Below, piece by piece: positions 2-33,779 of a stretch of DNA of 64,000 bases. The stretch covers positions 160,001 through 224,000 of the forward strand of contig CBDEFO010000006.1 in the NCBI GenBank assembly GCA_965237525.1, given 5' to 3'. The DNA is from Candidatus Latescibacterota bacterium (GTDB lineage: Bacteria; Latescibacterota; CBDEFO01). Under the pieces are notes generated by a model, which was given only the letters and a program-made list of their open reading frames with translations, did not search any database and was not told where the DNA came from. The stretch's first letter is position 1. Every line of letters begins with the position of its first letter. The translations under genes were made by a program, and so were the position numbers.

Positions 2-2227
2 CCCCGTTCAGTATTCAGTATGGATTTAGATGGAGATGGGGATAATGATTTAGCTGTAGCTAATCAGTTCAGCGATAATGTGTCAGTGTTGTTGAATAAT
101 GGGGACGGGACATTTGCAGATAAGGTGGGATATGGCGTTGGAGCTTGGCCCTTTTCAGTCTTCATTGCAGATTTAGATGGAGATGCTGATAATGACCTGG
201 CTGTGGGTAATGGGGGTGGTCGTACTGTCTCAGTGTTGTTGAATCGCTCTATCATGCCACCCCCTCCTGTTGTCACATCTATTGATCCTGTTTCCGGTTT
301 GAAATTGGAAGCTACTCCTGTGACGATAGCAGGAAACAATTTTCAGACTGGGACAAGTGTTACTTTCAGAGATAGTGTAGCCTCAGATCTGGTCGTAGTA
401 AGAGATAGCCCAGCCACAAATGTGGTCGTAGTATCCGATACCATCATTACCGCAATAACTCATCATCATCCTGCTGGCACTGTGGATGTGATAGTCGCAA
501 ATCCCGATGGTCTGGCAGATACGCTCTTTAGTGGATTTCGGTTTATTAATCCTGGACCCAACATAACTGATGTATCCGTTTCCAGGGGAGTTGTTCCACT
601 TGCTGATCCTGTAGTTATCTTCGTTAACCTGACTGATGCCGACGGTGTAGATTCAGTCTATGTCAGAGTGTGGGATCGGGACGATACGACCTTTCCTCCT
701 GTGCATTTGGCACTCTTCGACGACGGTGTACACGATGACGGTGCTCTTGGGGATGGCCAGTGGGGTAGCGACCCCTGGTTTACACCTGATGACCACCCCA
801 GGTTTTTCTATGTGGACATCTGGGCGATAGACAATCTTGGCGCGGAGAGTCACATGGATAGCGTCGCCCAGTTTGAGACAGCCGACCCGACGATCTTTGT
901 GACTGTGGGAATGGGTGAAGAGATCGCAGGTCCCGGAGGACAGGCTTTAGTTCCTATATTTGCTCATGTTCTAGATGATAAAGATGTAGTATCAGGCGAG
1001 ATACTGATGCGTTTCGATCCAAACCTTGCGCAACTTATACAGGCATTCCCGGGTCCAGGACGGCACTTTCCCAGTGGTTTCGATTTTAACTCCCCTGAAC
1101 CTGGAAAAGCCATAACAGTCTTTGCCTCGACAACTCCGCTCTCTGATACACCAGAAGGTACCCTGGCTTTTGCGGTATTCCAAGTAAACTCCAGTGCACC
1201 GTTAGGCTCAAGGATCAATGTATCTGTAAATCAAGCGAACCTGAACGAGGGCTTTCCCCCTGTGACTTCGTTCGATGGAACTATCACAGTAGAGCTTGTA
1301 GGTGATGTCAGCAGGAACGGTGAGATCAGGGCTTTTGACGCCTCTTTAGCGCTCATGTGGTCAGTGACGACCAGGAACATACCAGTCGAGTTCTTCGGCG
1401 GCGATGCAGATCTTTTTCTTGCGATCTCTGATGTGACTCGCAACGGGGAAGTGGGTGCTTTTGACGCCGTTCGGATTCTCCAATTTTTGGTTAGCAAGAT
1501 CCCTGGACTTCCGTACCTAGGACCCGATGGCCTTGCGAAGGTGGCAGAGATCGAACCGCGCGCAGTCAGCATTTCAGAAGGCTTGGAAACATCCGAAAGG
1601 GGCATAAAAGTTTCTGTTTCCATAGACGATATGTCAGGTGTTCTCGGAGCAGATATATCCATAAGCTACGATGCATCGAAGTTGAAAGCAGTAGGTGTAT
1701 CTCCCTCAGATATGATGTCCCCGTTTATGTTCCAGAGCAACATTGAGGTTGACGAGGTAAAGATGGCCGCTGCCTCCGCAGAAGGAGTAGAAGGCGAAGG
1801 AGATATAGCCTACATCGAGTTTGAGATCTTACCTGGTGAGAGCCACGATTGGGGAGATGCCGTATTAAGGATTCAGGATGTCCAACTCAACGAGGGCTTA
1901 ATCCCCGCCGTAACCGAGCAGACAGAGCTATCGTTGGCTGTCATTCCCGAAGTCTACGCCCTTTCCCAGAACTATCCGAATCCGTTCAACCCTGAGACTG
2001 TGATCCATTACGATCTTCCTTTCCCAAGCCACGTTAAGCTATCTGTCTACAACATAATGGGACAAAAGGTTGCGACACTGGTGGATGGTGAAAGATCGGC
2101 TGGTAGTCACTCCATAGTATGGGATGGAAAAAATAATAAAGGAGAAAGTCTTGCCAGCGGAGTGTACCTGTATCGGATGGAGACAGAGGGATTTGTTCAG
2201 ACGAGGAAGCTGGTCTTGATGAGGTAG
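2..2227 (+). CDS. Secreted multidomain protein, 5'-partial: FG-GAP repeats, IPT/TIG, DDG-rich anchor-like segment, cohesin-like, dockerin-like, cohesin-like, C-terminal FlgD-Ig/T9SS-type tail
   Basis: Frame is open from the window edge. DLDGDGDNDLAVAN repeats, GTVDVIVANPDG (IPT), paired GDVSRNGEIRAFDAS/SDVTRNGEVGAFDAV dockerin-like loops, and a LSQNYPNPFNP...GVYLYRM...TRKLVLMR tail. Confidence 0.85.
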   Translation, partial: PRSVFSMDLDGDGDNDLAVANQFSDNVSVLLNNGDGTFADKVGYGVGAWPFSVFIADLDGDADNDLAVGNGGGRTVSVLLNRSIMPPPPVVTSIDPVSGLKLEATPVTIAGNNFQTGTSVTFRDSVASDLVVVRDSPATNVVVVSDTIITAITHHHPAGTVDVIVANPDGLADTLFSGFRFINPGPNITDVSVSRGVVPLADPVVIFVNLTDADGVDSVYVRVWDRDDTTFPPVHLALFDDGVHDDGALGDGQWGSDPWFTPDDHPRFFYVDIWAIDNLGAESHMDSVAQFETADPTIFVTVGMGEEIAGPGGQALVPIFAHVLDDKDVVSGEILMRFDPNLAQLIQAFPGPGRHFPSGFDFNSPEPGKAITVFASTTPLSDTPEGTLAFAVFQVNSSAPLGSRINVSVNQANLNEGFPPVTSFDGTITVELVGDVSRNGEIRAFDASLALMWSVTTRNIPVEFFGGDADLFLAISDVTRNGEVGAFDAVRILQFLVSKIPGLPYLGPDGLAKVAEIEPRAVSISEGLETSERGIKVSVSIDDMSGVLGADISISYDASKLKAVGVSPSDMMSPFMFQSNIEVDEVKMAAASAEGVEGEGDIAYIEFEILPGESHDWGDAVLRIQDVQLNEGLIPAVTEQTELSLAVIPEVYALSQNYPNPFNPETVIHYDLPFPSHVKLSVYNIMGQKVATLVDGERSAGSHSIVWDGKNNKGESLASGVYLYRMETEGFVQTRKLVLMR

Positions 2228-17722: not shown

Positions 17723-18627
17723 CTAGGGAATACCCAGCTCTTCAACAGCCTGATGCAGGTCGGCCGGGAGAGGACCAGCCTGCGCTGCAGTTACGCTCTC
17801 TTCGATCTCGGCAGGCGTTGCTGCGCCGACCAGAATCGTTGTAATAGCTGGATCGGCTATCAAGTAGCGGATCGTCAGAGCGACCAGAGATAGGCCGGAG
17901 GCTTTCTGCAAGTCGTTCAGACGGGCATCTGGACTCTGCCCCTTATCGGCCCCGATGGTCTTAATCACACCCGCTGTGATGAAGGCTACTCCCTTCTTGC
18001 GAGCCAGCGGCAACGCCGTCCGACGCGCCTTTCGGGACAGTAGCGTGTAGTCGTAGGCGACCAGACAGGCGTCCACTTCCACATGGTGGAGGATGTGCGC
18101 GAGCTCCTCAGCGGGTCGGACGTAATCCCGATGAAGCGGCAGAGTCCGCGCTCCCTGGCCTCGTGGAGCACCTCCATCACCGGGGCGTTGGGAAGGTCGT
18201 AAGCCTCGTCAAGGCTCAGCAGCTGTTCGTTTGGCACGCCGTCCTTCCACCAGCAGGCCCACTCAGCCATATGTACCTGCAGTACGTCCACTTGGCTGCG
18301 GCGGAGGGCACGCAGGTTCTCCCAGAGCTGGGCACGGAAGGCATCCCGTGATCGGAAGTCGGCCGGCGCGGCAAGGTAGCCCAGCTTTGTTGCCAACAGA
18401 TATGGCTCCGTGCACCCCTCAAGCGCGTTGCCCAGTATTACCTGTGAAGCCCCCTGGCAGTAGGCCGGTGAGGTGTCAAAATAGCTGACGCCCAGTTCCA
18501 GCGCCCGGCGCACCGTGGCCACACCTTCGGTCAGAGAATACTTATCGAGAGAGCCGCCACCCAGACCCACGACTGTTACATGCTCCTCTGTCCTGCCGTA
18601 AGGGCGTCTTTCAATTGCTGCTTTCAG
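17723..18627 (-). pseudogene. Aldo/keto reductase, frameshifted near 18113, with CTG at the start position
   Basis: Two overlapping ORFs together reconstruct a paralog of 19791-20708; YFDTSPAY, LATKLG, LQVH. Confidence 0.85.
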
Positions 18628-18670
18628 GATTAGTCCCCCTCGAAAAATTTAAGAATATAAACACTGGCAA

Positions 18671-19711
18671 TTAGAATATTGCGCTCATAAATTTGATTTG
18701 TGGTAAAGAATGGACGTTATCAGCTATTTTCACCATTTCCTCATATGATCTTCTCCTGGCCAGTCTCATCTTAAGTACGTTGTATTGTCTGAATCTCCAA
18801 AACGAAACTGCAACAGCAGCATACTCTACAAAATCCTTTAGTGCATTTCGTTCCTCTTGTTCTAAAGGTCTTATTTTCTGATATCCATCAACAAGCGCCC
18901 TTATTTTTTCTACAGATACATTCTCTCTCTCTATACATGCTGCTATTATGGCAACGCCAATATCAAATATACAAAAATCGTTACTTGATTCTTCAAAATC
19001 AATAATAGCTTTTATGTTTTCACAGTCAAAGATTATGTTTTCAGGGAACATATCACCGTGTACCAAGCCTCTGGGAAGATTGGGACATAAACTTTCCCGC
19101 AGGTATTTAGATTTCTCTCTGAGCCATTCAATGTACTCGTGCTGTACGTCCAATTCAGTTACTTCTGGAAAAGCTTTAATTCCATAGGGATATGCTATAG
19201 AGAGAAAACCAAGCGGCGCTATTTGATGCAATTGTGCTATCGTTTCCCCCAGCTGCGATAACATCCCTGGAGTCAAGTTGTTTAGCACTTGACCTTCAAG
19301 GTACTCCTTAAGTATTATAGATCTAGTTCCCTTATATTTGTCCCTGATTGAACGTATCGGGGATTTGACAATGAAGTTTCCTTCTTCGGACGGAACTAAC
19401 CTTGAAGTAGGAAAATTGTGTTCTTCCAGAATCCGTAATAGAGCCACGAGGTTTTCTATTCCTAGTCCTTGTACTCCTGAAGATGTCTTCTCGTCAGCTT
19501 TAGTATTCAGCAGTTCCGAATCACAGGCTGTAAGTACATAAACTCCTTGTGATGTGTGTAGCACGTAACTGGAGTTAGTTTGACCTTCCTTAAGTGGATA
19601 GTGTTGAGCAATATCTTGTATGCCAAATTTTCTGGCTATGTCCACAATCTCTTCGGACCTTAGTTGCGTATAGCTATCTATTTCATCCTGCTTCGAGTGA
19701 GAATCCATCAA
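18671..19711 (-). CDS. Homoserine kinase type II / APH-like phosphotransferase
   Basis: EGQTNSSY, IAQLH, LPRGLVHGDMFPENI, IIDFE; visibly AT-richer than its neighbours. Confidence 0.8.
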   Translation of the reverse strand: MMDSHSKQDEIDSYTQLRSEEIVDIARKFGIQDIAQHYPLKEGQTNSSYVLHTSQGVYVLTACDSELLNTKADEKTSSGVQGLGIENLVALLRILEEHNFPTSRLVPSEEGNFIVKSPIRSIRDKYKGTRSIILKEYLEGQVLNNLTPGMLSQLGETIAQLHQIAPLGFLSIAYPYGIKAFPEVTELDVQHEYIEWLREKSKYLRESLCPNLPRGLVHGDMFPENIIFDCENIKAIIDFEESSNDFCIFDIGVAIIAACIERENVSVEKIRALVDGYQKIRPLEQEERNALKDFVEYAAVAVSFWRFRQYNVLKMRLARRRSYEEMVKIADNVHSLPQIKFMSAIF

Positions 19712-19790
19712 GCATGCCCTCTGCTAAGGTAATTTATTGCTGCCCAGACAGACTCTTCCTGCTTCATACGTCCCCGATTAAATCGGGGGT

Positions 19791-20708
19791 TCAGTCGGGG
19801 TCGGGAGACGTTTCCAGTTCTTCAAGGGCCTGATGTAAGTCAGGCGGCAGAGGGCCAGCCTGGGCTGCGACGACGCTCTCTTCAATCTCGGCAGGCGTTG
19901 CAGCACCGACCAGAATCGTTGTAATAGCTGGATCGGCTATCAAGTATCGGATCGCCAGTGCCACCAGAGATAGGCCGGAGGCTTTCTGCAGGTCGTTCAA
20001 GCGGGCATCGGGACTTTGCCCCTTATCAGCTCCGATGGAGTCAATCACCCCCGCTGCGATGAAGGCTACTCCCTTCTCGCGAGCCAGCGGCAACGCCGTC
20101 CGACGCGCCTCGCGCGACAGAAGCGAGTAGTTATAGGCGACCAGACACGCATCCACCTCCACATGGCGCAGCAGACGGGCAATTCGGTCTGCACTGTTTC
20201 CGGTGATCCCGATAAATCTACATAGACCTTGCGCTTTTGCTTCTCTTAGAACCTGCATTATGGGCGCGTTGGCAAAATCGTAATCGTACTCAGGTTGAAT
20301 GTGCGCGCTGTGCGCAGCATCATCAGACCACCAGCAGTGAAAATCAGCCTCGTGCACCTGTAGCGTGCCCACGCTGTCACGGCGCAGTAAACGCAGATTC
20401 TCATCAAGCTGTGTGCGCAGGGCGTCAGGCGAACGGTAACGGGTCTGGGTGGCCAGATGTCCGAGCTTGGTCGCCAGAAGATACTCTTCCGATCGTTCCT
20501 GCAGGGCCACACCATAAATTGCCTGCGATACTCCACTGCCGTAGAAAGGAGAGGTATCGAAATAGCTGACGCCCAGCTCCAGCGCCTGGCGCACTGTGGC
20601 CACGCCGTCTGCAAAGGAGTGCTTATCGAGAGAACCGCCACCCAGGCCCACGACAGTCACATGCTCATCTGTCCTGCCGTAAGGGCGTCTTTCAATTGCT
20701 GTTGTCAC
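19791..20708 (-). CDS. Aldo/keto reductase
   Basis: RRPYGRT, YFDTSPFYG, LATKLG, LQVHE, TILVGAATPAEIEE. Confidence 0.92.
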   Translation of the reverse strand: MTTAIERRPYGRTDEHVTVVGLGGGSLDKHSFADGVATVRQALELGVSYFDTSPFYGSGVSQAIYGVALQERSEEYLLATKLGHLATQTRYRSPDALRTQLDENLRLLRRDSVGTLQVHEADFHCWWSDDAAHSAHIQPEYDYDFANAPIMQVLREAKAQGLCRFIGITGNSADRIARLLRHVEVDACLVAYNYSLLSREARRTALPLAREKGVAFIAAGVIDSIGADKGQSPDARLNDLQKASGLSLVALAIRYLIADPAITTILVGAATPAEIEESVVAAQAGPLPPDLHQALEELETSPDPD

Positions 20709-20752
20709 GATTAATTCCTCCTGATCTTTCCTGGAAACGATCCCCTATAGGT

Positions 20753-21670
20753 TCACTCGGGGTCAGGAGACGTTTCCAGCTCTTCAAGGGCCTGATGTAA
20801 GTCAGGCGGAAGTGCGCCAGCCTGGGCTGCGACGACGCTCTCTTCAATCTCGGCAGGCGTCGCTGCGCCGACCAGAATCGTTGTAATAGCTGGGTCGGCT
20901 ATCAAGTAGCGGATCGCCAGTGCGACCAGAGATAGGCCGGAGGCTTTCTGCAGGTCATTCAAGCGGGCATCGGGACTTTCCCCCTTATCAGCTCCGATGG
21001 AGTCAATCACCCCCGCTGCGATGAAGGCTACTCCCTTCTTGCGAGCCAGCGGCAACGCCGTCCGACGCGCTTGCCGCGACAGAACCGAGTAGTTATAGGC
21101 GACCAGACACGCATCCACCTCCACGTGGCGCAGCACACGGGCAATTCGGTCTGCACTGTTTCCCGTGATTCCGATAAATCTACATAGACCTTGCGCTTTT
21201 GCTTCTCTTAGAACCTGCATTATGGGCGCGTTGGCAAAATCGTAATCGTACTCAGGTTGAATGTGCGCGCTGTTCGCAGCATCATCGGACCACCAGCGGT
21301 GAAGAATCGCTTCGTGCACCTGCAGCGTGTCCACGCTGTCACGGCGCAGTAAACGCAGATTCTCATCAAGCTGTGTGCGCAGGGCGTCAGGCGAACGGTA
21401 ACGGGTCGGGCTGGCTAGGAATCCGAGCTTGGTTGCCAGAAGATACTCTTCCGATCGTTCCTGCAGGGCCACACCATAGATTCCCTGCGATAGTCCACTG
21501 CCGTAGAGAGGAGAGGTATCGAAATAGCTGACGCCCAGCTCCAACGCCCGGCGCACTGTGGCCACGCCGTCGGCAAAGGAGTGCTTATCGAGAGAGCCGC
21601 CACCCAGACCCAGGACAGTCACATGCTCCTCTGTCCTGCCGTAAGGGCGTCTTTCAATTGCTGTTGTCAT
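20753..21670 (-). CDS. Aldo/keto reductase, tandem near-identical paralog of 19791-20708
   Basis: Same length (305 aa) and same motifs. Confidence 0.92.
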   Translation of the reverse strand: MTTAIERRPYGRTEEHVTVLGLGGGSLDKHSFADGVATVRRALELGVSYFDTSPLYGSGLSQGIYGVALQERSEEYLLATKLGFLASPTRYRSPDALRTQLDENLRLLRRDSVDTLQVHEAILHRWWSDDAANSAHIQPEYDYDFANAPIMQVLREAKAQGLCRFIGITGNSADRIARVLRHVEVDACLVAYNYSVLSRQARRTALPLARKKGVAFIAAGVIDSIGADKGESPDARLNDLQKASGLSLVALAIRYLIADPAITTILVGAATPAEIEESVVAAQAGALPPDLHQALEELETSPDPE

Positions 21671-21708
21671 AGTTCCTCCCTATCACGATCTGTTGCTTAT
21701 GAATCCAT

Positions 21709-23025
21709 CTATTCACGTACCCGCAGCGGTATTCTGATATCCTGCCGCCTGAACAAACAGGTGCCGTCCACATCTTCACACACATAGTAGAGGGCGTACG
21801 CCGGCAGAGCCACCTCTCCTGGCTCTGTTTCTGACGCACACCTCAGTTCAAAATCCAGCCGGCGCGTCTCAAGACTTACAGACTCAGATGGATTCTTTAC
21901 GGTATGAAGCTTCTGTTCCAGCTCCCAGCCAGGCAAGGGATCTACCCATAGTTTCAGACCTTCGACTTCATTATTCCAGTGAGCTTTTACAGCCTGATTC
22001 GGACGGAATATCACATGTATCCGTGCACTGCCGCCCGGTGGGATGACCGCCGGCACAGAGACCACTTCCACCTGAATAAGGCCCTCCTCATCCAGCCGTA
22101 TCCGGCCATCTGGATCGGGGTTTTGCACCGATGATTCACCGATCTCCAGATCTACTAATGGCGCTGCATATTCGGCGCCGGCAGGTTCAACCGTCAGTTC
22201 CACCGGGACCTCACCCCGTGCCGTGATTTCTTCTCGCGCCTGCTCTGTCCAGTCGTAGAACGGATAAGGCTTGTCCAGACGCGGGCCATACTGCTGAATG
22301 CGCCGTCTCCAGATATACTGGTTAGGGTCCAGCTCCAGGGCTCGGCTCCACTCTATCACAGCCTCCTGAAAATCGTTTGCCTTTCGGTATTCACTTTCAT
22401 AGCGCCGCCGCAGGCAAACCCCCAGGCGGAAATGCCAGCGCCCATCGCCTCCTTCCAGGTCCAGAGCCTGCCGAAAGGCCTCCACCGCCTCATTAATGCG
22501 CTCAATACCTCCCCATAGATAAAGGGCTGCACCGTACTCCCCCCAAGTCTCAGCTCCACCTGCAGCAGTCTGGCCCTTCAGGACGTTCAGGTCCGGTCTT
22601 TCTGCTACCAGAGGATCCTGAAGTTGCTCAGGCGGCGCAAAATCCCTGTGGATGAATTCCGCCTCAAATTTTTCCTGCGCAATCTCATGCCCTATTCCGT
22701 ACTCATCGATGGCCGTAACCGTGGGAACAGCCGTAAGTTCCAGCAGGTTCAACGGATCGATCATAATCGGCCAGTTCATCTCTTGCCACTGCAAAAAGAG
22801 GCGGCATCTCTCCGGATGCTGTTCCTGGATGCGCCCCACTACGACGAGCTGCCTGTTCTCTACCAGTTGCTTCACCTGTCGATACCAGCCTAGTATGTGC
22901 CTGCGGCAGCCCGCTCACCAGGACGCAAAATCCATCAGCAGAATCCTGCTGCCCCGGTACTGTCCCAGCGACATCGGCTCCCCATCCATCGAGGGAAGCG
23001 TCCGATCTCTATAGCTGGTCTCCAT
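21709..23025 (-). CDS. Probable selenoprotein: TlpA-like redoxin (W-U-A-G-C) + TPR + DsbD-N-like domain, 438 aa
   Basis: AAGGAG RBS and ATG at 23025. Reads ...RILLMDFASW-TGA(22915-22917)-AGCRRH... in frame into the 388-aa ORF. The TGA sits at the first Cys position of CxxC, with a hairpin at 22882-22896. Confidence 0.75.
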
Positions 23026-23158
23026 ATCTGCAGCTCCTTGAGTGGACAAAAGAATAGAGCAAACTGCAACAAATAGGTACAATTTCATCTTGTAAATGTA
23101 GTCGTATCGAGTCCCTAGATCCTGCCGACAGACAGGCCGCTTCTATCACCAGCGAATC

Positions 23159-24037
23159 CTAAAGCTCCGGCTCTTCCCCGATCTCAGCCAGGCGCTCTTT
23201 GGCCTGCTCATAGACATCGGTCGGAAGCGCCCCGGCCTTGGCTGCCGCCACGTTAGCCTGGAGGTGATCCAGATCGGCGGTGCCCACGATTGTAGTGTGG
23301 CAGGACGGATGGGAAAGCGTGAAGCGCAGCACAAACTCGTAGCGATTCATATCGCCCATCAGGTCGTTGAGCTTGGCCCGATCCCACTTTGTCCAGCGGT
23401 CACCGCTCTCGCGATGTCCCTTTGCGATGCCCCCGCGGATGATGATGCTAGCCCCCAGATCGGCCGCCTCCTGGATCATTTGCTCGTGCCTGCGCTCCAG
23501 GGCAGAATACGGAATCTGAAATGTGTCGAATACGCCCATCCGTGCAAAGGCCAGAAGATCCGGGGCCGTGGAAGATACACCGATGAACCGGGTCTTCCCT
23601 GACTCTCGAATCTCTTGAAGGGCCTGGACGAGTCCGCCCTGCTCTACCTGCTCCACAGAGGGGTTGTGCATCTGCAGCACGTCCACATGGTCGGTCTTCA
23701 TCCGCTCCAGGCTCTGGTCAATGTTCCTCTGCAGCCGATCTGCCGTCCACAGGTGGCCAGGATCTTGCCGGGCCCCGTCGGGGCCGATGTTGCACCCACA
23801 TTTTGTGGCCAGATAGAATTCGCCGCGACGATGGCTGATATATGCGCCGATGCGCTCCTCGCTCAAGCCGTAATCGGGTGAGGTGTCGATGAAGTTGATG
23901 CCCGAGTCAAGCACTGCATTTATGATGCTCCCGGGATCTTCAGTATGCGAAATCGCCATCGCGCCGTAGCCTAACTGGGTCACTTCTAACCCTGTGCGCC
24001 CAAGGGTCTCTTTCGGTAGCTCCATCTGCATGATCAA
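23159..24037 (-). CDS. Aldo/keto reductase
   Basis: LGRTGLEVTQLGYG, FIDTSPDYG, LATKCGC, LQMH. Confidence 0.92.
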   Translation of the reverse strand: MIMQMELPKETLGRTGLEVTQLGYGAMAISHTEDPGSIINAVLDSGINFIDTSPDYGLSEERIGAYISHRRGEFYLATKCGCNIGPDGARQDPGHLWTADRLQRNIDQSLERMKTDHVDVLQMHNPSVEQVEQGGLVQALQEIRESGKTRFIGVSSTAPDLLAFARMGVFDTFQIPYSALERRHEQMIQEAADLGASIIIRGGIAKGHRESGDRWTKWDRAKLNDLMGDMNRYEFVLRFTLSHPSCHTTIVGTADLDHLQANVAAAKAGALPTDVYEQAKERLAEIGEEPEL

Positions 24038-24239
24038 CCTCCAGTTCCAAGTCTATGTTTGTGTTTGCGGCCTACTAGCGGATTTGTCGGTGGTAGGCCA
24101 ACTTCTGCTTGTTAGAACGATCTGGCTACTTCAGTCGTGGATGCTTCCTATCAGCTCTTAAGTATCGAGCAAGAATAGTCTAGACAAGATTATACAGATC
24201 TAAAATAGTAGACAGTATGGAGGAAGAGGCAAGCTCACA

Positions 24240-24343
24240 AAGATTGCTTCGGCATCGTCGCCAGTCGTGTGGATTCTCAGAATGCCATAGACCAATCTAC
24301 TTGCTATCAATCCTGTCTCTTGTCCTATCTCGTGTGATTTCAT
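24240..24343 (-). pseudogene. Aldo/keto reductase N-terminal fragment
   Basis: GGAGG RBS, then MKSHEIGQETGLIASRLVYGILRI, truncated at the CGAAGCAATCT junction. Confidence 0.55.
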
Positions 24344-24531
24344 AATTACCTCCTGTGCTGATGTGTGTGATAATCAGAATCATCTTCTCTGAGAGGCAAC
24401 GAGGTCATAATCATGCGGCCTCCACTTTCCTACTTGAAACCGTTGATCCGCATATACTCGGACTCTTGGTCTGGATTCCGGTCCACCTTAGAGCAGGTCG
24501 GCGACTCACTTCGGGGGTATAGAACTACGTC

Positions 24532-25716
24532 CTATTCCGGGGACTCAAACTTCAGCCGCAGAATCTTGTCATTCTTTGAATTGCTGGTCAAAACGTAGAG
24601 ATGGCCGTCCGGTCCAACGGTCACGTCACGCAGGCGTCCGTAGATTCCATTGCGCAGGTCGCGAGCAAACCAACGTTCGATATTCGTTACCTTATAGTCT
24701 TCGTTATCGTCTTCGAATTGGACACGGATCAGGGCATGACTTCCTAGCGTGGCAACAAAGAGATCTCCGCGGTAAAAGGTCATGCCGGTGGGAGGGACAG
24801 CGGCTTTTTCCCACATCACGATGGGATCCCGGTATTCAGCGATCCGAGGCGCGCCGACGACATTGGGCCAGCCGTAGTTGGCTCCTTTCTCAACGATGTT
24901 GATCTCGTCGCGCTATAGGACGCCCGGCCATTCACCAGACGGTCCGTGTTCTGAGTTAAACATTACACCGGTCTCGGGGTCCCAGGCCAGGCCTTGCACA
25001 ACACGGTGCCCATACGAAAAGATCGGAGAGCCGGGGAAGGGGTTATCTTTCGGAATCTGCCCATCCGGCGTGATGCGAAGAATCTTTCCTGCCCATGTGT
25101 TGAGATCCTGGGAGAGCGGCTGGTTCCAGAGATCGCCAGTCCCGATATAGAGCATCCCATCCGGACCGAATCCGATCCTGCCGCCAATATGAACTCTGTG
25201 ACCGGGTATGTTGTCTAGAATGACGCTGTCAACAACACCGGTATCACCGTGATGGCGCAAACGAATGATACGATTGAATAGCTGTTCATCCTTTTGATAG
25301 CTGTGTATGGCGTAGACAAAGGGGTGCTGTGCAAATTGGGGATGCAGGGCCAATCCCATGAGTCCCCCATCTCCGACAGGGGCCACCTCATCAGGTTTGA
25401 CGTAAAGCTGCGGCTGGTTCTGGCCATGGGGGACACGTTGTATTCGGCCGGGCCTTTCGGAGAACAGGGCATCGCCATTCGGCAGGAAAACCAGAGACCA
25501 CGGAAGCTCCAGACTGTCCACCCAGGTCTCGACCCTGACTCCTTCCACTTGTGGAAGGAAAACGTCGACCACGGTCTGCGGCACTTCCCCGCGGATGGGT
25601 TCACCGTTAACGCTTCTGGGAAGGGAAAGCGCAACTATGATCGCCAAAACGTGCTGGAGCAAGTATGGGCTGTGGAAGGATGTCTTTCGCATTTCGAAGC
25701 TCCTTGATTTAGTCAT
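24532..25716 (-). pseudogene. PQQ-dependent sugar dehydrogenase, copy 2, with an in-frame TAG at 24913-24915
   Basis: Both ORF halves are in the same frame: GVL*RDEI versus GVLHRDEI and GVYERDEI in the paralogs. Confidence 0.85.
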
Positions 25717-25796
25717 AGTTTGACCTCCTCTATCATGAGACGTTATGAGAAATTCTCTACAGCTTCAAAAGTACGCTTTTTCCCCACTTCAACAGA

Positions 25797-25887
25797 GCGA
25801 ACTTGACGGACATCCACAGATCCGTAATCGCCATTGGGCAGGTCCCTAGGGAATTCCCAGCTCTTCAACAGCGTGATGCAGGTCGGC
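25797..25887 (-). repeat. Duplicated AKR 3' end (ADLHHAVEELGIP*) plus downstream spacer
   Basis: Matches 27187-27276 and 17676-17764. Confidence 0.85.
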
Positions 25888-25916
25888 GACTCACTTCGGG
25901 CGTTTACAACTACGTC

Positions 25917-27080
25917 CTATTCTGAGGTGTCAAACTTCAGGCGCAGAATCTTGTCAGTGGTCAAAACGTAGAGATGGTCATCCGCTCCAACGGTCACGTC
26001 ACGCAGGCGTCCGTAGATTCCATTGTTCAGGTCGCGAGCAAACCAACGTTCGATATTCGTCACTTTATAGTCTTCGTTATCGTCCTCAAACTGGATACGA
26101 ATCAGTGCTTGACTTCGCAACGTGGCAACGAAGAGGTCCCCGCGGTAAAAGGTCATGCCCGCGGGAGGCACGGACGCACCGCGCCACATGATGATCGGAT
26201 CTCGGTATTCAGGGATGCGAGGCGCGCCGACGACAGTGGGCCAGCCGTAGTTGGCTGCTTTCTCGATGATGTTGATCTCGTCGCGCTCATAGACGCCTGG
26301 CAAGTCACCAGACGGTCCGTGTTCTGAGCTAAACAAGACGCCGGTTTCAGGGTCCCAGGCCAAGCCCTGGACATTACGGTGCCCATAGGAAAAGATAGGG
26401 GAGCCGGGGAAGGGGTTATCCTTCGGAATCTGACCGTCTGGCGTGATGCGAAGAATCTTTCCTGCCCATGTGTTGAGATCCTGGGCAGGCGTCTGCTTCC
26501 AGAGTTCGCCTGTGGCGATGTAAAGCATCCCATCCGGACCGAATCCGATCCTGCCTCCGATATGCTCCCCGATATGCTGCCCCTTGCCAGCAGGTATGTT
26601 GTCCAAAATGACGCGATCAATAACACCGGTATGATGGTGGTGGCGCAAGCAAATGACACGATTGAATAGCTGTTCATCCTTTTGATAGGTGTGCATGGCG
26701 TAGACAAAGGGGTGCCGTGTAAATTGGGGATGCAGGGCCAATCCCATGAGTCCCCCATCTCCGACGCGGACAACTTCATCGATTTTGATGTAGAGTTGCG
26801 GCTGGTTCTGGCCACGTGGAATATGCTGAATTCGACCGCGTGGTTCTGAAACAAGGGCATCACCGTTTGGCAGGAAAACAAGTGACCAGGGAGTATGCAG
26901 ACTGTCCACCCAGGTTTCGACGCTGACCCCTTCCACTTCTGGAAGGAAAACATCGGCCACGGTCTGCGGCACTTCCCCATGGATGGGGTCGGCGGAAACG
27001 CTGCTGGAAAGGGAAAGCACGACTATGATCACCAAAACGTGCTGGAGCAAGTGTGGACTGTGGAAGGATCTCTTTCGCAT
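25917..27080 (-). CDS. PQQ-dependent sugar dehydrogenase, copy 3
   Basis: Signal peptide, YGHRNVQGLAW, EHGP, NYGWP, GRLRDV. Confidence 0.9.
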   Translation of the reverse strand: MRKRSFHSPHLLQHVLVIIVVLSLSSSVSADPIHGEVPQTVADVFLPEVEGVSVETWVDSLHTPWSLVFLPNGDALVSEPRGRIQHIPRGQNQPQLYIKIDEVVRVGDGGLMGLALHPQFTRHPFVYAMHTYQKDEQLFNRVICLRHHHHTGVIDRVILDNIPAGKGQHIGEHIGGRIGFGPDGMLYIATGELWKQTPAQDLNTWAGKILRITPDGQIPKDNPFPGSPIFSYGHRNVQGLAWDPETGVLFSSEHGPSGDLPGVYERDEINIIEKAANYGWPTVVGAPRIPEYRDPIIMWRGASVPPAGMTFYRGDLFVATLRSQALIRIQFEDDNEDYKVTNIERWFARDLNNGIYGRLRDVTVGADDHLYVLTTDKILRLKFDTSE

Positions 27081-27234
27081 TTCGAAGCTCCTTGATTCAG
27101 TCGTAGTTTGACCCCCTTTATCATGAGACGTTATGACAACTTCTCTACAGCTTCAAAAGTACGCTTTTTCCCCACTTCAACAGACGCGAACTTGGCGGAC
27201 ATCCACAGTTCCGTGACCGCCATTGGGCAGGTCC

Positions 27235-28182
27235 CTAGGGAATTCCCAACTCTTCAAGGGCCTGATGCAGGTCGGCAGGTAGAGGGGCAGCCTGCGCTGC
27301 GGTCACGCTCTCTTCGATCTCGGCAGGCGTCGCAGCGCCTATCAGAATCGTCGTGACCGCTGGGTCCGCCATTAGAAACCGCACGGCCATGTTCACAAGC
27401 GAAAGACCGCAATCCTTCTGCAGCGCATAGAGCCGCTCAAAACGGTTCAGAACCTCGGGCGTCCAGGAGTCCGGGGGAGAACTCAGCCACTCGGGATGAA
27501 CCTCCGTCAGTTGACCATTGTGAAAGGCACCGCCCAGGATCAATGTCACCCCCTTCTCAACTGCGACCGGCAAAGCCTGGCGGCGGGTCCCCCGCCTTAT
27601 CAGATCGTAGTTGAAGGCGGGCAGACAGGTGTCAACCTCCACGTGTCGCAGGACATGAGCAACGGAGTCCACACTGTTTCCGGTGATCCCGATAAATCTA
27701 CATAGGCCTTCCGCTTTTGCCTCTCTCAGAACCTGCATGACCGGGGCGTTGTCAAAATCGAAATCATCCTCAGGTTGAACGCGTCCGGTTGCCCCTTCGG
27801 ACCACCAGCAGGGATAATCGGCCTCATGCACTTGCAGCGTGTCCACGCTGTCACGGCGCAGGACACGGAGGTTTTCCTCAAGTTGCGTTCGCAGAGCCTC
27901 AAGCGACCGGTAACGAGCAATGGTTTTAAAACCCCGTAATTTTGTCGCCAAAATATACTCTTCCGAACGTCCCTGCAGGGCCTCCCCGTAGATTGCCTGC
28001 GATACTCCATAGCCATAGCCAGGTGAGGTGTCGAAATAGGTAACGCCGAGTTCCAGCGCCCGCCGTACTGTAGCTACACCATCGGCATAGGAGCGCTCGT
28101 TGAGAGGTGAGCCACCCAGGCCTACGACTGTAACACGCTCACCTGTCTTGCCGTAAGGACGTGTTTCAATTGTTGTTGCCAT
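27235..28182 (-). CDS. Aldo/keto reductase
   Basis: YFDTSPGYG, LATKL, LQVHE, FNYDLIRR. Confidence 0.92.
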   Translation of the reverse strand: MATTIETRPYGKTGERVTVVGLGGSPLNERSYADGVATVRRALELGVTYFDTSPGYGYGVSQAIYGEALQGRSEEYILATKLRGFKTIARYRSLEALRTQLEENLRVLRRDSVDTLQVHEADYPCWWSEGATGRVQPEDDFDFDNAPVMQVLREAKAEGLCRFIGITGNSVDSVAHVLRHVEVDTCLPAFNYDLIRRGTRRQALPVAVEKGVTLILGGAFHNGQLTEVHPEWLSSPPDSWTPEVLNRFERLYALQKDCGLSLVNMAVRFLMADPAVTTILIGAATPAEIEESVTAAQAAPLPADLHQALEELGIP

Positions 28183-28284
28183 GATTAATTTCTCCTATTC
28201 TCCTGCCACCTCATGCGCAACACTGGATTGATCCCCGATAGACTCAATGGGGATTCAATCCCCGAAAAGTTAATCCAATGAGCA

Positions 28285-29157
28285 TTAGTCCTCCGGCTCT
28301 TCCCCGATCTCAGCCAAGCGCTCTTTGGCCTGCTCATAGACATCGGTCGGAAGCGCCCCGGCCTTGGCTGCCGCCACGTTAGCCTGAAGGTGATCCAGAT
28401 CGGCGGTGCCCACGATGGTAGTGTGGCAGGACGGATGGGAAAGCGTGAAGCGCAGCACAAACTCGTAGCGGTTCATATCGCCCAGCAGAGCGTTGAGCCC
28501 GGCCCGATCCCACTTTGCCCGGGTGTTAGGCCCCCCGGTATGCCCCCTAGCGATGCCGCCGCGGATGATGATGCCAGCCCCCAGATCGGCCGCCTCTTGG
28601 ATCATCCGCTCGTGCCTGCGCTCCAGGGCAGAATACGGTATCTGAAAGGTGTCAAAGACGCCCATCCGTGCAAAGGCCAGAAGATCCGCGGCCATGGAAG
28701 ATACGCCGATGAACCGGGTCTTTCCCGCCTCTCGAATCTCTTGAAGGACTTGGACGAGTCCACCCTGCTCAACCTCCTCCACGGAGGGATTGTGCATCTG
28801 TAGCACGTCCACGTGGTCAGTCTTCATCCGCTCTAAACTTTGGTCAATGTTCCTGCGCAGCCGATCTGCCGTCCACACGTGGATAGGATCTAGCCGTTCC
28901 CCATCGGGGCCAATGTTGCAGCCACATTTAGTGGCCAGATAGAACTCGTCGCGACGATGGCTGATATAGGCGCCGATTCGCTCCTCACTCAAGTCGTAAC
29001 AGACGGCAGTGTCGATGAAGTTGATGCCCGAGTCGAGCACTGCATTTATCATGCTCCCGGGATCTCCAGTACGCACAAGCTCCATCGCGCCGAAGCCTAA
29101 CTGCGTCACTTCTAACCCTGTGCGCCCAAGGGTCTCTTTCGGTAGCTCCATCTGCAT
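28285..29157 (-). CDS. Aldo/keto reductase, close paralog of 23159-24037
   Basis: Near-identical backbone plus a shared upstream region of about 220 bp. Confidence 0.92.
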   Translation of the reverse strand: MQMELPKETLGRTGLEVTQLGFGAMELVRTGDPGSMINAVLDSGINFIDTAVCYDLSEERIGAYISHRRDEFYLATKCGCNIGPDGERLDPIHVWTADRLRRNIDQSLERMKTDHVDVLQMHNPSVEEVEQGGLVQVLQEIREAGKTRFIGVSSMAADLLAFARMGVFDTFQIPYSALERRHERMIQEAADLGAGIIIRGGIARGHTGGPNTRAKWDRAGLNALLGDMNRYEFVLRFTLSHPSCHTTIVGTADLDHLQANVAAAKAGALPTDVYEQAKERLAEIGEEPED

Positions 29158-29489
29158 GATCGACCTCCACTTCCAGGTTTATGTTTGTGCTTGCGGCCTG
29201 CCGGCGGACTCATCGGCTGTAGGGCCAACGTCTGTTTGTGAGAAAGGTCCCGTTACTATCAGCCGCGGATGCTTCCCATAAGCGCTTAACTATCGGGTCA
29301 AAATAGTGTGGACAAGATTAAAGAGAACCAAGATACTAGACAGCATAGAGGGAGAGGCAAGCTAACGGAGATTGCTTCGCTTTGCGTTAAATGACGTTGC
29401 AGGGACTTTTGTCATTATGAGGGGCAAAACCCTGAAGTAACTTGACCTTTCTACGAACTTAATATATCCCAGAAGCTTTGTCAAGCTAC

Positions 29490-30469
29490 TTAGCTGGATA
29501 CCAGGCCATGCTCCTCAAAAATCTCCAGCGCCTTCTGGAATATCTTTTGATCGGGGTAATTTCCATCGGCAGCATCCAGGACTTCGTCGACCTGCTCAGG
29601 CGTATTCAGGCCTACTATTACACTGCTTACGATGGGATGGATCAGGGCAAATTTGATCGCAAACTCGGTCCACGATTCTATTTCCCCGGCAATAGCAGCC
29701 TTTAAAATCTCCAACCTTTCATAGGCAGAATCCCAATTATCTGCCAACATACGATCACCTTTCGGCAATTGGCTGCGGCAGGCCCGCCTGTCCGTGAGCA
29801 AACCGCCCATAAAGGGACGAATGCAGAAGAATCCCTGGCCCTTCACCTGCATCTTGAGAAAAATTCGGCCATCTCCATTTCGATCGGGTTGTAGTAAGCC
29901 ACTATTCCGCTGAAAGCGTCGGTTTTCAAAGCCGCAGATGCAAATCCAGGGGTATAAGGAAAGGTCGTCAGGTAACCGACCTTACCTTCCTCTTTTAATT
30001 TCTGGAATATCTCCAGCATAGGCTCATAAACTGCCTCAATATTCGGAACACTGAGTTCATCCGTGTTGGGATTGGATCTTTGCAAGTGCTGCACTACCGC
30101 GATACGATCCGCGTGAAGATCCCGCAGGGCTTCTTCGACACGCAATCTGAACTTGTCGGAATGAAATTTTCCGCCGTCTTCGAAATCAGGCACCGGCACT
30201 TTGATGATATGATGAAGCTCTTTCCGCTTCGGATGATCCTTCAGAACCTGTCCGACGGCCCAACGAGTTCCGTACTCGTAGCTCGAGTGGATGAAATTAA
30301 CGCCCCGCTCGATGGCTCTTGCCAGAGCCCGTTGTCCGGTATTTGACCTGTCCTCATGACCCGGCTCCGTGGCCGCAAACCGCATCGGGCCAAAACAGAT
30401 TTCCGATACCTCTAAATCGGTCTTTCCAAATTTCCGATATGGCATCTTTCCCTCCTTAAGAGGTGACAT
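29490..30469 (-). pseudogene. Aldo/keto reductase with a -1 frameshift near 29858
   Basis: YRKFGKTDLEVSEICFG N-terminal half and IRPFMGGLLT...SSVIVGLNTPEQV C-terminal half lie in adjacent frames. Confidence 0.82.
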
Positions 30470-30534
30470 CTGCAGTCTAAGTTGTTTCTGATCCTTTGAG
30501 GAGAGGGATACATAAGCTCTCTAACAGCGTGAGG

Positions 30535-31398
30535 TTACGACACCATCGCTGGGCTGGACGCTACCCGGAATCCACTAACCAACCCCTTGTTGTGCGTCCC
30601 GGAGCTGGCTGAGATACGCTCACAACAGCGCAGGCCGAACGTGTTGTTCTCCCAGGAACCACCCCGGATCGCCCGGAACGAGCGGGCCGGCACCTGCAGG
30701 TGATCGTTGTCTCGCCACCGTACGATCGGACTATACAACGCATTGACATCCTCTTCCGGGCCGAGCGGATTAGCACAGCGGCTTACCTCATAGTAGCAGG
30801 GATGGTAGGCATCCGCACACCACTCCCACACGTTTCCGGACATGTCGTAGAGGCCGTATCCATTGGGAGAATAACTTCCGACTGGGGTGAGGCCCCAACC
30901 CTGGTTGTTGAGCGGCGTCACGTCAGGTTTATGGCAGGCATGACGCCAGTTGCAATGCTGCCCGGGTGGATCATTCCCCCAAGAGTAGTCGGACCGCTCA
31001 AGGCCACCCCGCGCGGCTTTCTCTCACTCCGCTTCGGTGGGCAGCCGCAGACCGGCCCAGATGGCGAAGGCGACCGCATCGATCCAGTTGACGCAGATGA
31101 CAGGGTAACGCTCTTTTCCAGGGCTAGCAAAATGTGACCAGACCTGCAGGGTTTCCCCTGCCCGCTCACGAGTGGTCTGGTACTCAGTCTGCGCCACAAA
31201 CCAGGCGAAATGGGCGTTGGTAACAGGATACTGGGCCATGTAGAAACTGTCAAGATAGACCTTGTGCACTGGTCTGGTATCCGGCTCCGGACTTAGCTCC
31301 ATCACGTCGCCCATCCAAAATGGACCAGAAGGGATCAAAACGAGTTCGATCTCAGGACCGCCACCAGGCAGCGTAAGTCTCTTTTTACAGCATCCCAC
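30535..31398 (-). pseudogene. Formylglycine-generating enzyme family (SUMF1/EgtB/PvdO) protein with an in-frame TGA at 31024-31026
   Basis: LRLPTEAE*EKAARGG, where the family consensus has W; PNGYGLYDMSGNVWEWC, RGGSW, GFR. Confidence 0.85.
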
Positions 31399-31545
31399 AG
31401 GAATTTATCCTTTCGCCTAATTCCTGAGAATAGTACTAATTTAGCGACCGCGTACTGGCTGTCAGGACTGCGGATACTATATGTAGCGGAATGTGGCCAA
31501 CAGATGGGGAAAAACGGGATTGCAGTCCTCCTTATCAGTCGGAGG

Positions 31546-32586
31546 CTATAACGGAAAACATACCGCTTCCCCAGACATTTCCGATCGATAGGCCGCTTCT
31601 ACAATCTCCAGATCCTTTCGTCCTTCTTGAGCGTCCATCGGCGATTCTTTATCCGTCTGAATCCATTCTACAAACTCCCGACACTCGGCCGCAAATCCGT
31701 CTTGATGCCGATGTCCACTCAGGTCGATACGCAACTCACCCTCGGCCGGCCCAACACCCTCGATTCCACGGGAATGGATTAAGAGGGTATCCTGACCCTC
31801 CGAGATGATCGAGCCATCCGTACCGTAGACTGCAAAACGAGGTCCGGGACCGGGGTGGGAAGTCGCCCAACTTATCACCATATTTCCGATGACCCCATTC
31901 TCAAACTTTACTGAAAGCACGGAGGTATCTTCCCCTTCCAGGAAGAGTTCTGGGCTTACTCTGTCGGCAAAGAGGGCGAAGACTCGATCGGCTCGACTCC
32001 CTGCCAGCAACCGCAGCGTCCGAACCGAATGAATACCCAGGCTCATCAGGCTCCCTCCACCGGCAGTCTCACGCTGAAACCACCACGAATCCGGCCGGGG
32101 GCCTATGCGCCATAACTCATGCACACGTACCATGAAAACTGTGCCGATCAAACCAGCATCGATCAACCGACACGCCTCTGTACTATCCGGCTGGAACTGA
32201 TAGTTCTCAGCGACAGCCAGGCGAGTTCCCGCCTGGTCAGCGGCCTTTAACATGGCGTCGGCTTCAGATAGGTTCAGGGCCATCGGCTTTTCCGTCATGC
32301 AGTGCTTTCCTGCTTCCGCTGCCTGCACAGCTACGGGACAGTGCAGATGATGTGGCAGCACTACACCCACGGCACCGATAAGATCCGATGCCAAAATCTC
32401 GTCAATCGAAGAAAAGGTCCCAACAACCCTTAGTTCTTGTTCTGCCCGTTGAACTTTGACTGGATCAATATCATAGACATACAGATCCACATCTTCCATA
32501 TCACTGAAATGCCCGGCATGGGTATAACCCATCCATCCAAGACCGATCACACAGATACCCAGTTTCCGGGAACTGACATTTTTCAT
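31546..32586 (-). CDS. Gfo/Idh/MocA family oxidoreductase
   Basis: IGLGWMG, AGKHCMTEKPMA, GGGSLMSLGIH. Confidence 0.9.
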   Translation of the reverse strand: MKNVSSRKLGICVIGLGWMGYTHAGHFSDMEDVDLYVYDIDPVKVQRAEQELRVVGTFSSIDEILASDLIGAVGVVLPHHLHCPVAVQAAEAGKHCMTEKPMALNLSEADAMLKAADQAGTRLAVAENYQFQPDSTEACRLIDAGLIGTVFMVRVHELWRIGPRPDSWWFQRETAGGGSLMSLGIHSVRTLRLLAGSRADRVFALFADRVSPELFLEGEDTSVLSVKFENGVIGNMVISWATSHPGPGPRFAVYGTDGSIISEGQDTLLIHSRGIEGVGPAEGELRIDLSGHRHQDGFAAECREFVEWIQTDKESPMDAQEGRKDLEIVEAAYRSEMSGEAVCFPL

Positions 32587-32903
32587 TGCCTTCTCCTTAT
32601 TTGGTGGTCACGCTCTGATGCGGCATTCGCCTTCCTATTGAGTGTCGCTCTCAAAAAGAAGGACGATACAGAATCAGATTGTGGATGTCAGTGAGAACTT
32701 CTCAGCCCAAAGTTCATGTCCACTTTATCAGCAGACTTCCTTATCCAGTCACGTTCTCGGATCGTCAGTTACTTTTGACCGCAGCGTGCTGGTGATATCT
32801 ACAGCCCACAACGCCCCCAAACCTAATAGGGCATGATCCCTCATGGCGACCTTCAGGACACTTGCAACTCTATATTTCATCCTGTGAGTCTTGTCAAAAT
32901 TCT

Positions 32904-33779
32904 TCACGACACCTGCGACGGCGTCAAACCGACACCATCCAGGCGGCGTTTCGCTTCCACATAAACATCCGGAGACAGGGGGCCTTTCAGCACGGTGCGT
33001 GCGTTCTCCTGAAGGTGTTCAGGATTCTGGGTGCCCACGATAATAGTACTTATCTGGGGATGTGCAAGCGTAAAGCGTAGCATGAAGGCAGTGTGGTTCT
33101 CGCCTTCCTCCCGTAATTCATCCAACTTCGCTTCGTCAAAACTGCCCCACTGCGCGGCAGAGCCTGAACCTATCCCCGGTTCACCACTTGCCACTCCACC
33201 TCGGATAATGGTACCTATCCCGGCTTCTGAGGCCTTGGTGATCCAAGTTTCGTGCTTCCGCTCGAGAGCTGAATACGGTATCTGGAATGTATCAAAGACA
33301 CCCCACGAAAGATAGGTAGGTAAATCGGGCAGCGTAGTGGAGATGCCGATCCAGCGCACTTTTCCCTGCTGGCGCATCTCTTGCATCGCCTCGACCAGGT
33401 TACCCTCCTCGCACTGCTGCACCGACGGGTTGTGGGGCTGTATCAAGTCTATATAGTCGGTTCTCAGACGCTGCAGGCTCTCCTGCAAGCCCCGAAAGAG
33501 GTTCTCCTTCGTCCAAATATGCCCATCCGGGTGACAGCCGCACTTGGTTGCCAAATAGTATTCTGATCTCCGGTGGGAGATACATTTGCCGATGAACTCT
33601 TCACTGCGACCATAGTCACTGGCGGTATCTATGAAGTTGATTCCGGAATCCAGCACTGCGTTGAAGATGGTCTTGGAGTTATCATCTGTCCATGGCCGCC
33701 TATCCCAGGCACCAAAGCCCAGGCGAGTCACCTCCAGTTCAGTGCGTCCTAAATTTGCGGTAGGTAAACCTTGTGACAT
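32904..33779 (-). CDS. Aldo/keto reductase
   Basis: LGRTELEVTRLGFG, FIDTASDYG, LATKCGC, SLQRLRTDYIDL. Confidence 0.92.
   Translation of the reverse strand: MSQGLPTANLGRTELEVTRLGFGAWDRRPWTDDNSKTIFNAVLDSGINFIDTASDYGRSEEFIGKCISHRRSEYYLATKCGCHPDGHIWTKENLFRGLQESLQRLRTDYIDLIQPHNPSVQQCEEGNLVEAMQEMRQQGKVRWIGISTTLPDLPTYLSWGVFDTFQIPYSALERKHETWITKASEAGIGTIIRGGVASGEPGIGSGSAAQWGSFDEAKLDELREEGENHTAFMLRFTLAHPQISTIIVGTQNPEHLQENARTVLKGPLSPDVYVEAKRRLDGVGLTPSQVS

Follow-up and report, generated by a model that had tools for sequence, protein, structure and literature searches.

In the DsbD system, as laid out in the accessible part of PMC3137068, reducing equivalents flow from the membrane domain to the thioredoxin-fold domain cDsbD, from there to nDsbD and finally to DsbC and CcmG. 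In SOQ1, a Trx-like domain, a scaffold and a domain resembling nDsbD are combined in one protein (10.1101/2024.11.01.621559; structure in 10.1101/2021.03.16.435614), and the available text of the former report describes unidirectional transfer from the Trx-like domain to the C-terminal domain (CTD) together with methionine sulfoxide reductase activity. Thioredoxin-fold selenoproteins with a UxxC motif are already known; the fusion of such a domain to TPR and DsbD-N-like domains described here is a new architectural variant. The encoding gene was found in a DNA stretch of 64,000 nucleotides from a Candidatus Latescibacterota bacterium (contig CBDEFO010000006.1, positions 160,001 to 224,000), hereafter the window, in whose numbering all coordinates are given unless a locus is named.

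An in-frame TGA in a TlpA-type motif

The full gene (21709..23088, minus strand) consists of 459 codons and a TAG stop (21711-21709). Its codon 58 is an in-frame TGA (22915..22917, minus strand) where a TlpA-type motif has its first Cys (FASW-U-AGC), and the full product, read from ATG 23088, would be a protein of 459 residues with Sec58, Cys61, Cys437 and Cys444. On the 5' side of the TGA the frame is open for 75 codons, a stretch that includes ATG 23088 and a product beginning MKLYLFVAVCSILLSTQGAAD; on the 3' side 401 open codons lead to the TAG. The reading from which this work started, that of a single in-frame TGA at codon 37 counted from an ATG at 23025 with AAGGAG 8 nt upstream, is accurate as to these sequence facts.

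A profile scan of genome contigs returned 354 relatives, the best 80 of which were kept; 79 of these cover the TGA site and one is cut by a contig end. All 79 covering homologs (best 80 of 354) have TGA at the same position and none has Cys there. The PF00578 match runs through the TGA, and dN/dS relative to the ortholog from the same genus (locus L013) is about 0.29 on either side of it, with few changes to count on the upstream side. The window's genome (96.6% complete) contains selB, selA, selD and a tRNA-Sec(UCA), each scoring over its curated cut-off, and its selD itself carries one TGA followed by a G-loop hairpin. The earlier note had proposed a Sec-containing UxxC redoxin, had asked for these four genes and for the codon used by homologs, and had named a genome devoid of Sec machinery whose close homologs all use TGC or TGT as the finding that would speak for a nonsense mutation; the opposite was found on both counts, the machinery being complete and TGA being present in 79 of 79 homologs (best 80 of 354) with no TGC or TGT. 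Among the 79 homolog genomes (from the best 80 of 354), selB exceeds its cut-off in 76 and the other three have selA over cut-off, against a background of 28 selB-bearing genomes among 61 of the window's phylum, a rough comparison given that the phyla differ. The sel cluster adjoins the homologous gene in two loci: in L056 (133-4763) and L081 (62-4776), selC-selA-selB-selD lies directly upstream of, and divergent from, it. An HMM screen of 27701 read-through fragments of the window's genome returned this gene as its only match, and TGA interrupts one of the ten PF00578 matches of that genome. We conclude that the apparent internal stop almost certainly encodes selenocysteine: we regard this reading of the UGA as practically assured for the family as a whole and as highly probable for the allele carried by the window.

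Other accounts of the TGA were considered and rejected. An assembly slip is at odds with a contig of run X1, possibly the source sample itself, which agrees with the window throughout 21634-23221 (0 differences), and with contigs of runs X2 and X4, in which the TGA is kept. A chance TGA is at odds with its presence at this very site in 79 of 79 homologs (best 80 of 354). A genome-wide reassignment of UGA to Trp or a similar change is contradicted by the use of TGA as a normal gene end (31 of 80 family members, best 80 of 354) and by the finding that the sole tRNA with a UCA anticodon in the genome is tRNA-Sec. Recoding without Sec machinery is not borne out by the three homolog genomes in which selB stays below its cut-off: selA exceeds its own in each of them, a partial selB stands beside selA in G066 and G136, and a tRNA-Sec is present in G066 and G115, while none was found for G136 among the 150 of 636 candidates scored. 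On the closed chromosome of G136 (G136:C1:1736343-1738270), the selB that follows selA matches over its first 171 positions only, possibly owing to a frameshift or an assembly error.

Domain architecture and a possible two-centre relay

The N-terminal part of the protein is a TlpA/ResA-like thioredoxin-fold domain (22650..23025, minus strand) with U58-A-G-C61 and an invariant Pro122, the predicted cis-Pro. It matches AhpC-TSA above the Pfam cut-off, has UxxC in all 80 sequences (best 80 of 354) and is matched by Foldseek and VIA to DsbE/ResA/Etrx (Z 12.9). Taken in isolation this domain does have CxxC relatives, DsbE/ResA/TlpA/Etrx being its top sequence matches. It is followed by a TPR-like helical region (22219..22590, minus strand) with invariant PNQYIWRRRIQQYG and KPYPFYDW motifs, a TPR_2 match above the Pfam cut-off, model helices at residues 146-269 and TPR structural matches (Z 12.8). 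Both assignments agree with those of the earlier note, as does that of the third domain, a DsbD-N-like Ig beta-sandwich (21712..22110, minus strand; model pLDDT 94.6, profile alignment to DsbD_N) that carries a Cys437-x6-Cys444 pair (YYVCEDVDGTCL; 21757..21780, minus strand) invariant in 44 of 44 aligned sequences. The AlphaFold model, computed from an alignment of 44 of the 80 rows and with Cys in place of Sec, shows a thioredoxin fold, a helical TPR-like region and a beta-sandwich (pLDDT 92.9, pTM 0.91); no transmembrane domain was found in the sequence or in the model.

Assignment of the third domain was made by hhalign against 30 PF11412 regions from homolog-bearing genomes, a set that retains at least one row probably read out of frame. 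The match reached 94.95% (E 4e-8, 122 columns), placing KAHWNN on WHxYW and both Cys, in the last hairpin, on the DsbD_N Cys pair, whereas the reversed control gave 0.3% and 20 column shuffles gave at most 1.2%. Given this match and these controls the third domain is, by profile comparison, a remote DsbD-N homolog that lies below the Pfam cut-off. Pfam DsbD_N (PF11412) itself matched the domain in 1 of 41 members (E 0.068, below cut-off), and an Atlas search gave DsbD_N at rank 27 (score 0.87, 11% DsbD_N), to be taken as a lead only. Fold searches with the C-terminal model confirmed the Ig fold and returned generic Ig domains, nDsbD being absent among the matches listed, and a PDB sequence search with the C-terminal domain alignment gave 0 hits.

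The two Cys of this domain and the Sec site appear to have been lost together. Among 270 fetched proteins, 251 start 3' of the UGA and keep both C-terminal Cys, their Sec status being deduced from this truncation; 8 leave the C-terminus uncovered, 4 rows are odd or frameshifted, and 7 are real full-length forms devoid of the UGA. In five of these seven, Ser occupies the Sec site and both C-terminal Cys are gone, and the other two, which are near-identical, are CxxS forms that keep one C-terminal Cys, so that the pair is absent. All seven (P0198, P0209, P0223, P0226, P0247, P0219 and P0271) keep the Ig domain and are probably redox-dead paralogs that retain the scaffold. No full-length CxxC ortholog was found among the 270 proteins or the 79 loci (best 80 of 354); Cys orthologs are usual for bacterial selenoproteins, not required. 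Since none of the seven full-length non-UGA homologs has the C-terminal Cys pair, these sequences suggest that the Sec site and the pair are coupled centres. A quick larger tree put the non-Sec forms in three places, and an AU test with the alignment cut down to 35 rows did not reject a single clade (p = 0.145); the co-loss therefore represents one to three events, and may have been a single one. We note that the pTM of 0.91 implies a fairly rigid monomer, in which the two centres might be far apart.

Mostly by analogy with DsbD and SOQ1, we lean towards a likely exported thioredoxin-TPR-DsbD-N-like selenoprotein acting as a two-centre relay, in which electrons would pass from CcdA to the Sec-thioredoxin and on to the DsbD-N-like domain. 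SelB, acting on the in-frame hairpin, would insert Sec58, and the N-terminal signal would export the protein. The genome's single CcdA-type protein, either directly or through its ResA-like neighbour, would reduce the Sec58-Cys61 bond, and the Sec58 selenolate would then reduce the Cys437-Cys444 disulfide of the Ig domain, in the way that nDsbD is reduced by cDsbD and SOQ1-CTD by SOQ1-Trx. The Ig domain would in turn reduce an envelope client positioned by the TPR region, be it a disulfide, a sulfenic acid or a methionine sulfoxide. The genome has one DsbD_TM match, of CcdA size (241 aa) and next to a ResA-like gene, and has no PF11412 (DsbD_N) match. This ccdA-resA-like pair (G000:C5:23815-25157, L126) lies right after gyrA and is a candidate electron donor. 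No neighbour is conserved across the 80 loci (best 80 of 354), the largest real neighbour cluster comprising 6 of the 80, and no client is indicated.

The main rival to this relay is the reverse order, in which the DsbD-N-like pair would be the point of entry and would recharge the U-x-x-C site, the latter being the catalytic end that acts on TPR-bound clients. Donation from nDsbD to a TlpA-like protein, CcmG, makes this direction equally precedented: CcmG and DsbC are both reduced by nDsbD according to the accessible part of PMC3137068, and PilB likewise, as cited in the available text of 10.1101/2024.11.01.621559. Sec is moreover usually the catalytic residue, other DsbD_N domains occur in 32 of 47 homolog genomes, and the co-loss of the centres is compatible with either direction. 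We nevertheless consider the reverse order a possibility of rather low probability, as the window's genome has a CcdA-type conduit only and CcdA-type proteins act on thioredoxin folds. Electron flow in SOQ1, the nearest counterpart in architecture, is also from Trx to CTD (10.1101/2024.11.01.621559, available part).

The N-terminus of the protein is suggestive of export. Read from ATG 23088, the product starts with a predicted cleavable signal peptide, MKLYLFVAVCSILLSTQGAA followed by D (23026..23088, minus strand; hydropathy 2.76, a heuristic only), the MKLYLFVAVCSILLSTQGAAD start having the basic, hydrophobic and small-residue succession typical of such peptides. A hydrophobic segment precedes the thioredoxin domain in 72 of 80 sequences (best 80 of 354 relatives), from which export of the whole selenoprotein family appears likely. 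The earlier note had set the start at ATG 23025. While the RBS and ATG that it described are real, the probable start is 63 nt further upstream, at ATG 23088, so that this "RBS" also encodes Q-G-A of the signal-like segment. ATG 23088 has no Shine-Dalgarno (SD) sequence (0.4 kcal/mol), a weakness found at 11 of the 166 signal-like starts of the genome, whereas the internal AAGGAG and ATG 23025, at Met22 (23023..23039, minus strand), combine into a possible second start for a cytoplasmic isoform (SD -7.8 kcal/mol).

It is conceivable that translation in this genus begins mainly at ATG 23025 and yields a cytoplasmic protein, with the signal segment little used or vestigial, or that both isoforms are made. 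Both start features are unchanged in L013, and Met22 falls exactly at the predicted mature N-terminus. Yet both genomes of the genus have an unbroken 21-codon signal segment, which with 2 changes in 63 nt is as conserved as the rest of the gene, while a 14-nt indel lies just 5' of ATG 23088; an SD of -7 kcal/mol or lower occurs by chance at 1252 of 15023 internal ATGs (8%); and an internal SD-start of any kind is found in only 13 of 77 homologs (best 80 of 354), at scattered positions. We regard main use of the internal start as unlikely and favour ATG 23088 as the ancestral start, which is probably still used. The indel is a 14-nt tandem duplication directly 5' of ATG 23088 (window 23092) that is present in L013 and X7 and absent from the window. 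No promoter-like site was found 5' of the gene.

A further alternative keeps the Sec site and denies the second centre, the protein then being a single-centre Sec redoxin or peroxidase whose C-terminal Cys form a structural disulfide in a binding Ig domain. Structural disulfides are frequent in exported Ig domains, and the generic Ig domains returned by the fold searches would fit; the alignment of the pair with the DsbD_N redox pair, and its loss exactly in those forms that have no Sec and still keep the domain, render this alternative improbable in our view.

The SECIS hairpin and the surrounding locus

The bSECIS model in the accessible text of PMC13188914 calls for a loop of 3-9 nt, a stem of 4-16 bp, a G in the first two loop positions, a distance of 16-37 nt from the UGA and a free energy of -7.5 kcal/mol or lower. 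In the window, the putative bSECIS (22881..22897, minus strand) pairs positions +22..26 with +32..36 around an invariant G+28; the hairpin ATACTA-GGC-TGGTAT (22896-22882) begins after an 18-nt spacer, at the place and with the sequence first noted. Across the family (best 80 of 354) the stem is 5-6 bp, the loop 3-5 nt and the spacing 23-24 nt, with G+28 in 80 of 80, a geometry that fits the model as given in that part of PMC13188914. Of the cells of the +22..26/+32..36 stem, 97% pair, a value reached in 0 of 500 shuffles, slid controls giving 22-69% (best 80 of 354); one stem pair is broken in 11 sequences, mostly from Planctomycetota. Synonymous codons within the hairpin are frozen (Val GTG 78/78, Gly GGG 55/57, His CAC 62/65; best 80 of 354), in contrast to control codons elsewhere in the gene, whose entropies are 1.5-2.0 bits at conserved four-fold sites and 0.9-1.0 bits for His, a comparison among related sequences and hence short of a formal test. 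Genuine compensatory changes are rare and confined to the window's lineage, where two G-C pairs became A-U with Val to Ile and His to Tyr substitutions. Synonymous freezing is the stronger evidence for constraint on the hairpin.

The window's own allele is weak. The pair at +26 is a U.G wobble and that between +21 and +37 is gone; the energy of the allele is -1.9 kcal/mol (17 nt) or -2.1 (+16..+45), with a pairing probability of about 0.35, against -6.2 (17 nt) and -8.4 (+16..+45) for L013 and a family median of -8.5 kcal/mol, and the hairpin lies outside the minimum-energy fold of the 60-nt region. Between this strain and the near-identical X2 there are 6 differences in 1575 nt, of which two fall within the 17-nt hairpin, and both make it stronger in X2. 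The weakening changes, at window 22892 and 22881, replace a near-invariant Pro by Leu and Gly by Arg, respectively, which is a post hoc observation. The stronger state is common to X2, X4, X7 and L013; since X4, X7 and L013 share it, the window's two hairpin alleles are derived. They may lower read-through or may represent drift in a region with four broken genes. Natural strong and weak SECIS alleles whose amino-acid changes track base pairing lend themselves directly to testing bacterial SECIS rules in organisms other than E. coli. That the TGA is a nonsense mutation, or that the copy in this strain is in decay and has ceased to be read through, is hardly credible: four broken genes lie within 10 kb, two of the six differences from the near-identical strain weaken the hairpin and its local energy falls short of -7.5 kcal/mol, but the TGA is present in 79 of 79 homologs (best 80 of 354), purifying selection (dN/dS 0.29) acts on both sides of it, the five stem pairs, spacing and loop G are all retained, and the Sec machinery is complete.

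The gene lies within an array of at least eight co-oriented aldo/keto reductase (AKR) genes (17723-33779) of two or more subgroups with near-identical pairs (93%, 88%). The placement within an AKR array given by the earlier note is thus true of the window; it is not a conserved context, AKR neighbours occurring in 1 of 80 homolog loci (best 80 of 354), namely L013 only, and a functional link to the array was rejected on this count and for want of conserved neighbours. Two AKR genes are frameshifted, at about 18113 and about 29860, the second being intact in L013. A lower-GC (44%) kinase/phosphotransferase-like gene (18671-19711, minus strand) is inserted among the AKR genes, and two tandem signal-bearing beta-propeller genes (24532-27080, minus strand), which we take to be sugar-dehydrogenase-like, include one broken by TAG 24915; a block at 24.5-29.2 kb is missing at the matching place in L013. 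Further along (30535-31398, minus strand), a gene that is presumably FGE-sulfatase-like has a TGA at 31026, in the context LPTEAE-stop-EKAARGG and, we assume, at the conserved Trp of the FGE motif, which looks like a plain nonsense change and not Sec. The earlier caution that other stops nearby are ordinary nonsense mutations is upheld by TAG 24915 in one of the two paralogs and by TGA 31026, to which the two frameshifted AKR genes may be added. Within 61 genomes of the phylum the full gene occurs only in the window's genome and its congener, and in the tree these two occupy a long branch among members of other phyla, a pattern compatible with acquisition of the gene by this genus.

Comparison with described families and systems

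The family comprises 466 representatives at 50% identity (E <= 1e-30) from Acidobacteriota, Planctomycetota, Gemmatimonadota and others. In most database entries the protein is truncated, labelled "TPR/hypothetical" and stripped of its active site, and the family is for that reason missing from selenoproteome counts. As no full-length CxxC ortholog was found among the 270 proteins, it would also be hidden from searches for Cys/TGA pairs, a limitation of such searches stated in the accessible text of PMC12013277. NCBIfam 20 has no model for the thioredoxin-TPR-DsbD-N-like architecture. Its best match, NF041054 (WAxxUGC_long; E 7.7e-13), covers the thioredoxin domain and the TPR region (residues 7-244), Sec taking the place of the first Cys, but scores 48.4 bits against a cut-off of 300, has the motif WAxxUGC (U-G-C) where this family has W-U-A-G-C (UxxC), and leaves out the C-terminal DsbD-N-like domain. 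The UxxC thioredoxin-fold selenoproteins of Table 1 of the 2026 review PMC13188914 share fold and motif with the present protein, which scores above the PF00578 cut-off, and some proteins of the present family may be filed under the same names; none of the entries in that 119-family table, as far as the accessible part of the review goes, names a fusion to TPR and DsbD-N-like domains, and its supplementary lists could include members. The fusion is likewise unnamed in the available text of PMC9312934, PMC12013277 and PMC4807772, whose supplements (S9 Table in the case of PMC4807772) could list members, as could those of deep-Sep. Our literature searches found the architecture nowhere described, one relevant paper (PMC12013261, Haft and Tolstoy 2025) lying outside the search.

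TlpA, ResA, CcmG (DsbE), StoA and Etrx resemble the protein in being the top matches of its N-terminal domain, in their export signal (here predicted) and in the Pro at the cis-Pro position. They differ in having Cys where Sec stands here, in lacking the two extra domains and in their anchored N-terminus, which here is of the cleavable type by heuristic only. No cytochrome c maturation neighbours were found at the 80 loci (best 80 of 354). With DsbD the protein shares a thioredoxin-fold redox pair, an Ig-fold Cys pair and profile homology to DsbD_N; it has no transmembrane domain, and the reversed domain order, the TPR spacer and Sec set it further apart. The Cys spacing is Cx6C here versus mostly Cx4C in the fetched DsbD_N set, the E. 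coli DsbD pair, C103-C109, being Cx5C.

SOQ1 of the plant thylakoid lumen and NHLRC2, as described in the accessible parts of the SOQ1 reports cited above, have the same order of a Trx-like domain, an interaction scaffold and an nDsbD-like CTD with a Cys pair, and SOQ1 resides in an extracytoplasmic compartment fed by CcdA, as modelled here. They differ in having an NHL propeller in place of the TPR region and CCINC in place of WUAGC, and the present protein has no HAD or TM domain. Residues 921-1027 of 7djl, which we take from title and numbering to be the SOQ1 CTD, appeared in both C-terminal fold searches (Z 8.1, rank 28). This match is no better than those of generic Ig domains, and the likeness to SOQ1 is therefore to be taken as an analogy, short of demonstrated orthology. 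More speculatively, and with little confidence, one may picture an uncatalogued, essentially Sec-only family of soluble "DsbD-without-membrane" proteins as the equivalent of SOQ1 in bacteria, a reductase for protein repair in the envelope that possibly acts on methionine sulfoxide or sulfenic acid by means of its Ig fold, with one mRNA giving exported and cytoplasmic forms in this genus and with SECIS strength, varying between strains, as a tuning knob for selenium use. The relay that we favour points to selenium chemistry in the cell envelope, would provide a simple single-chain model for thioredoxin-to-nDsbD transfer, and bears on whether nDsbD-like domains can act as terminal repair reductases.
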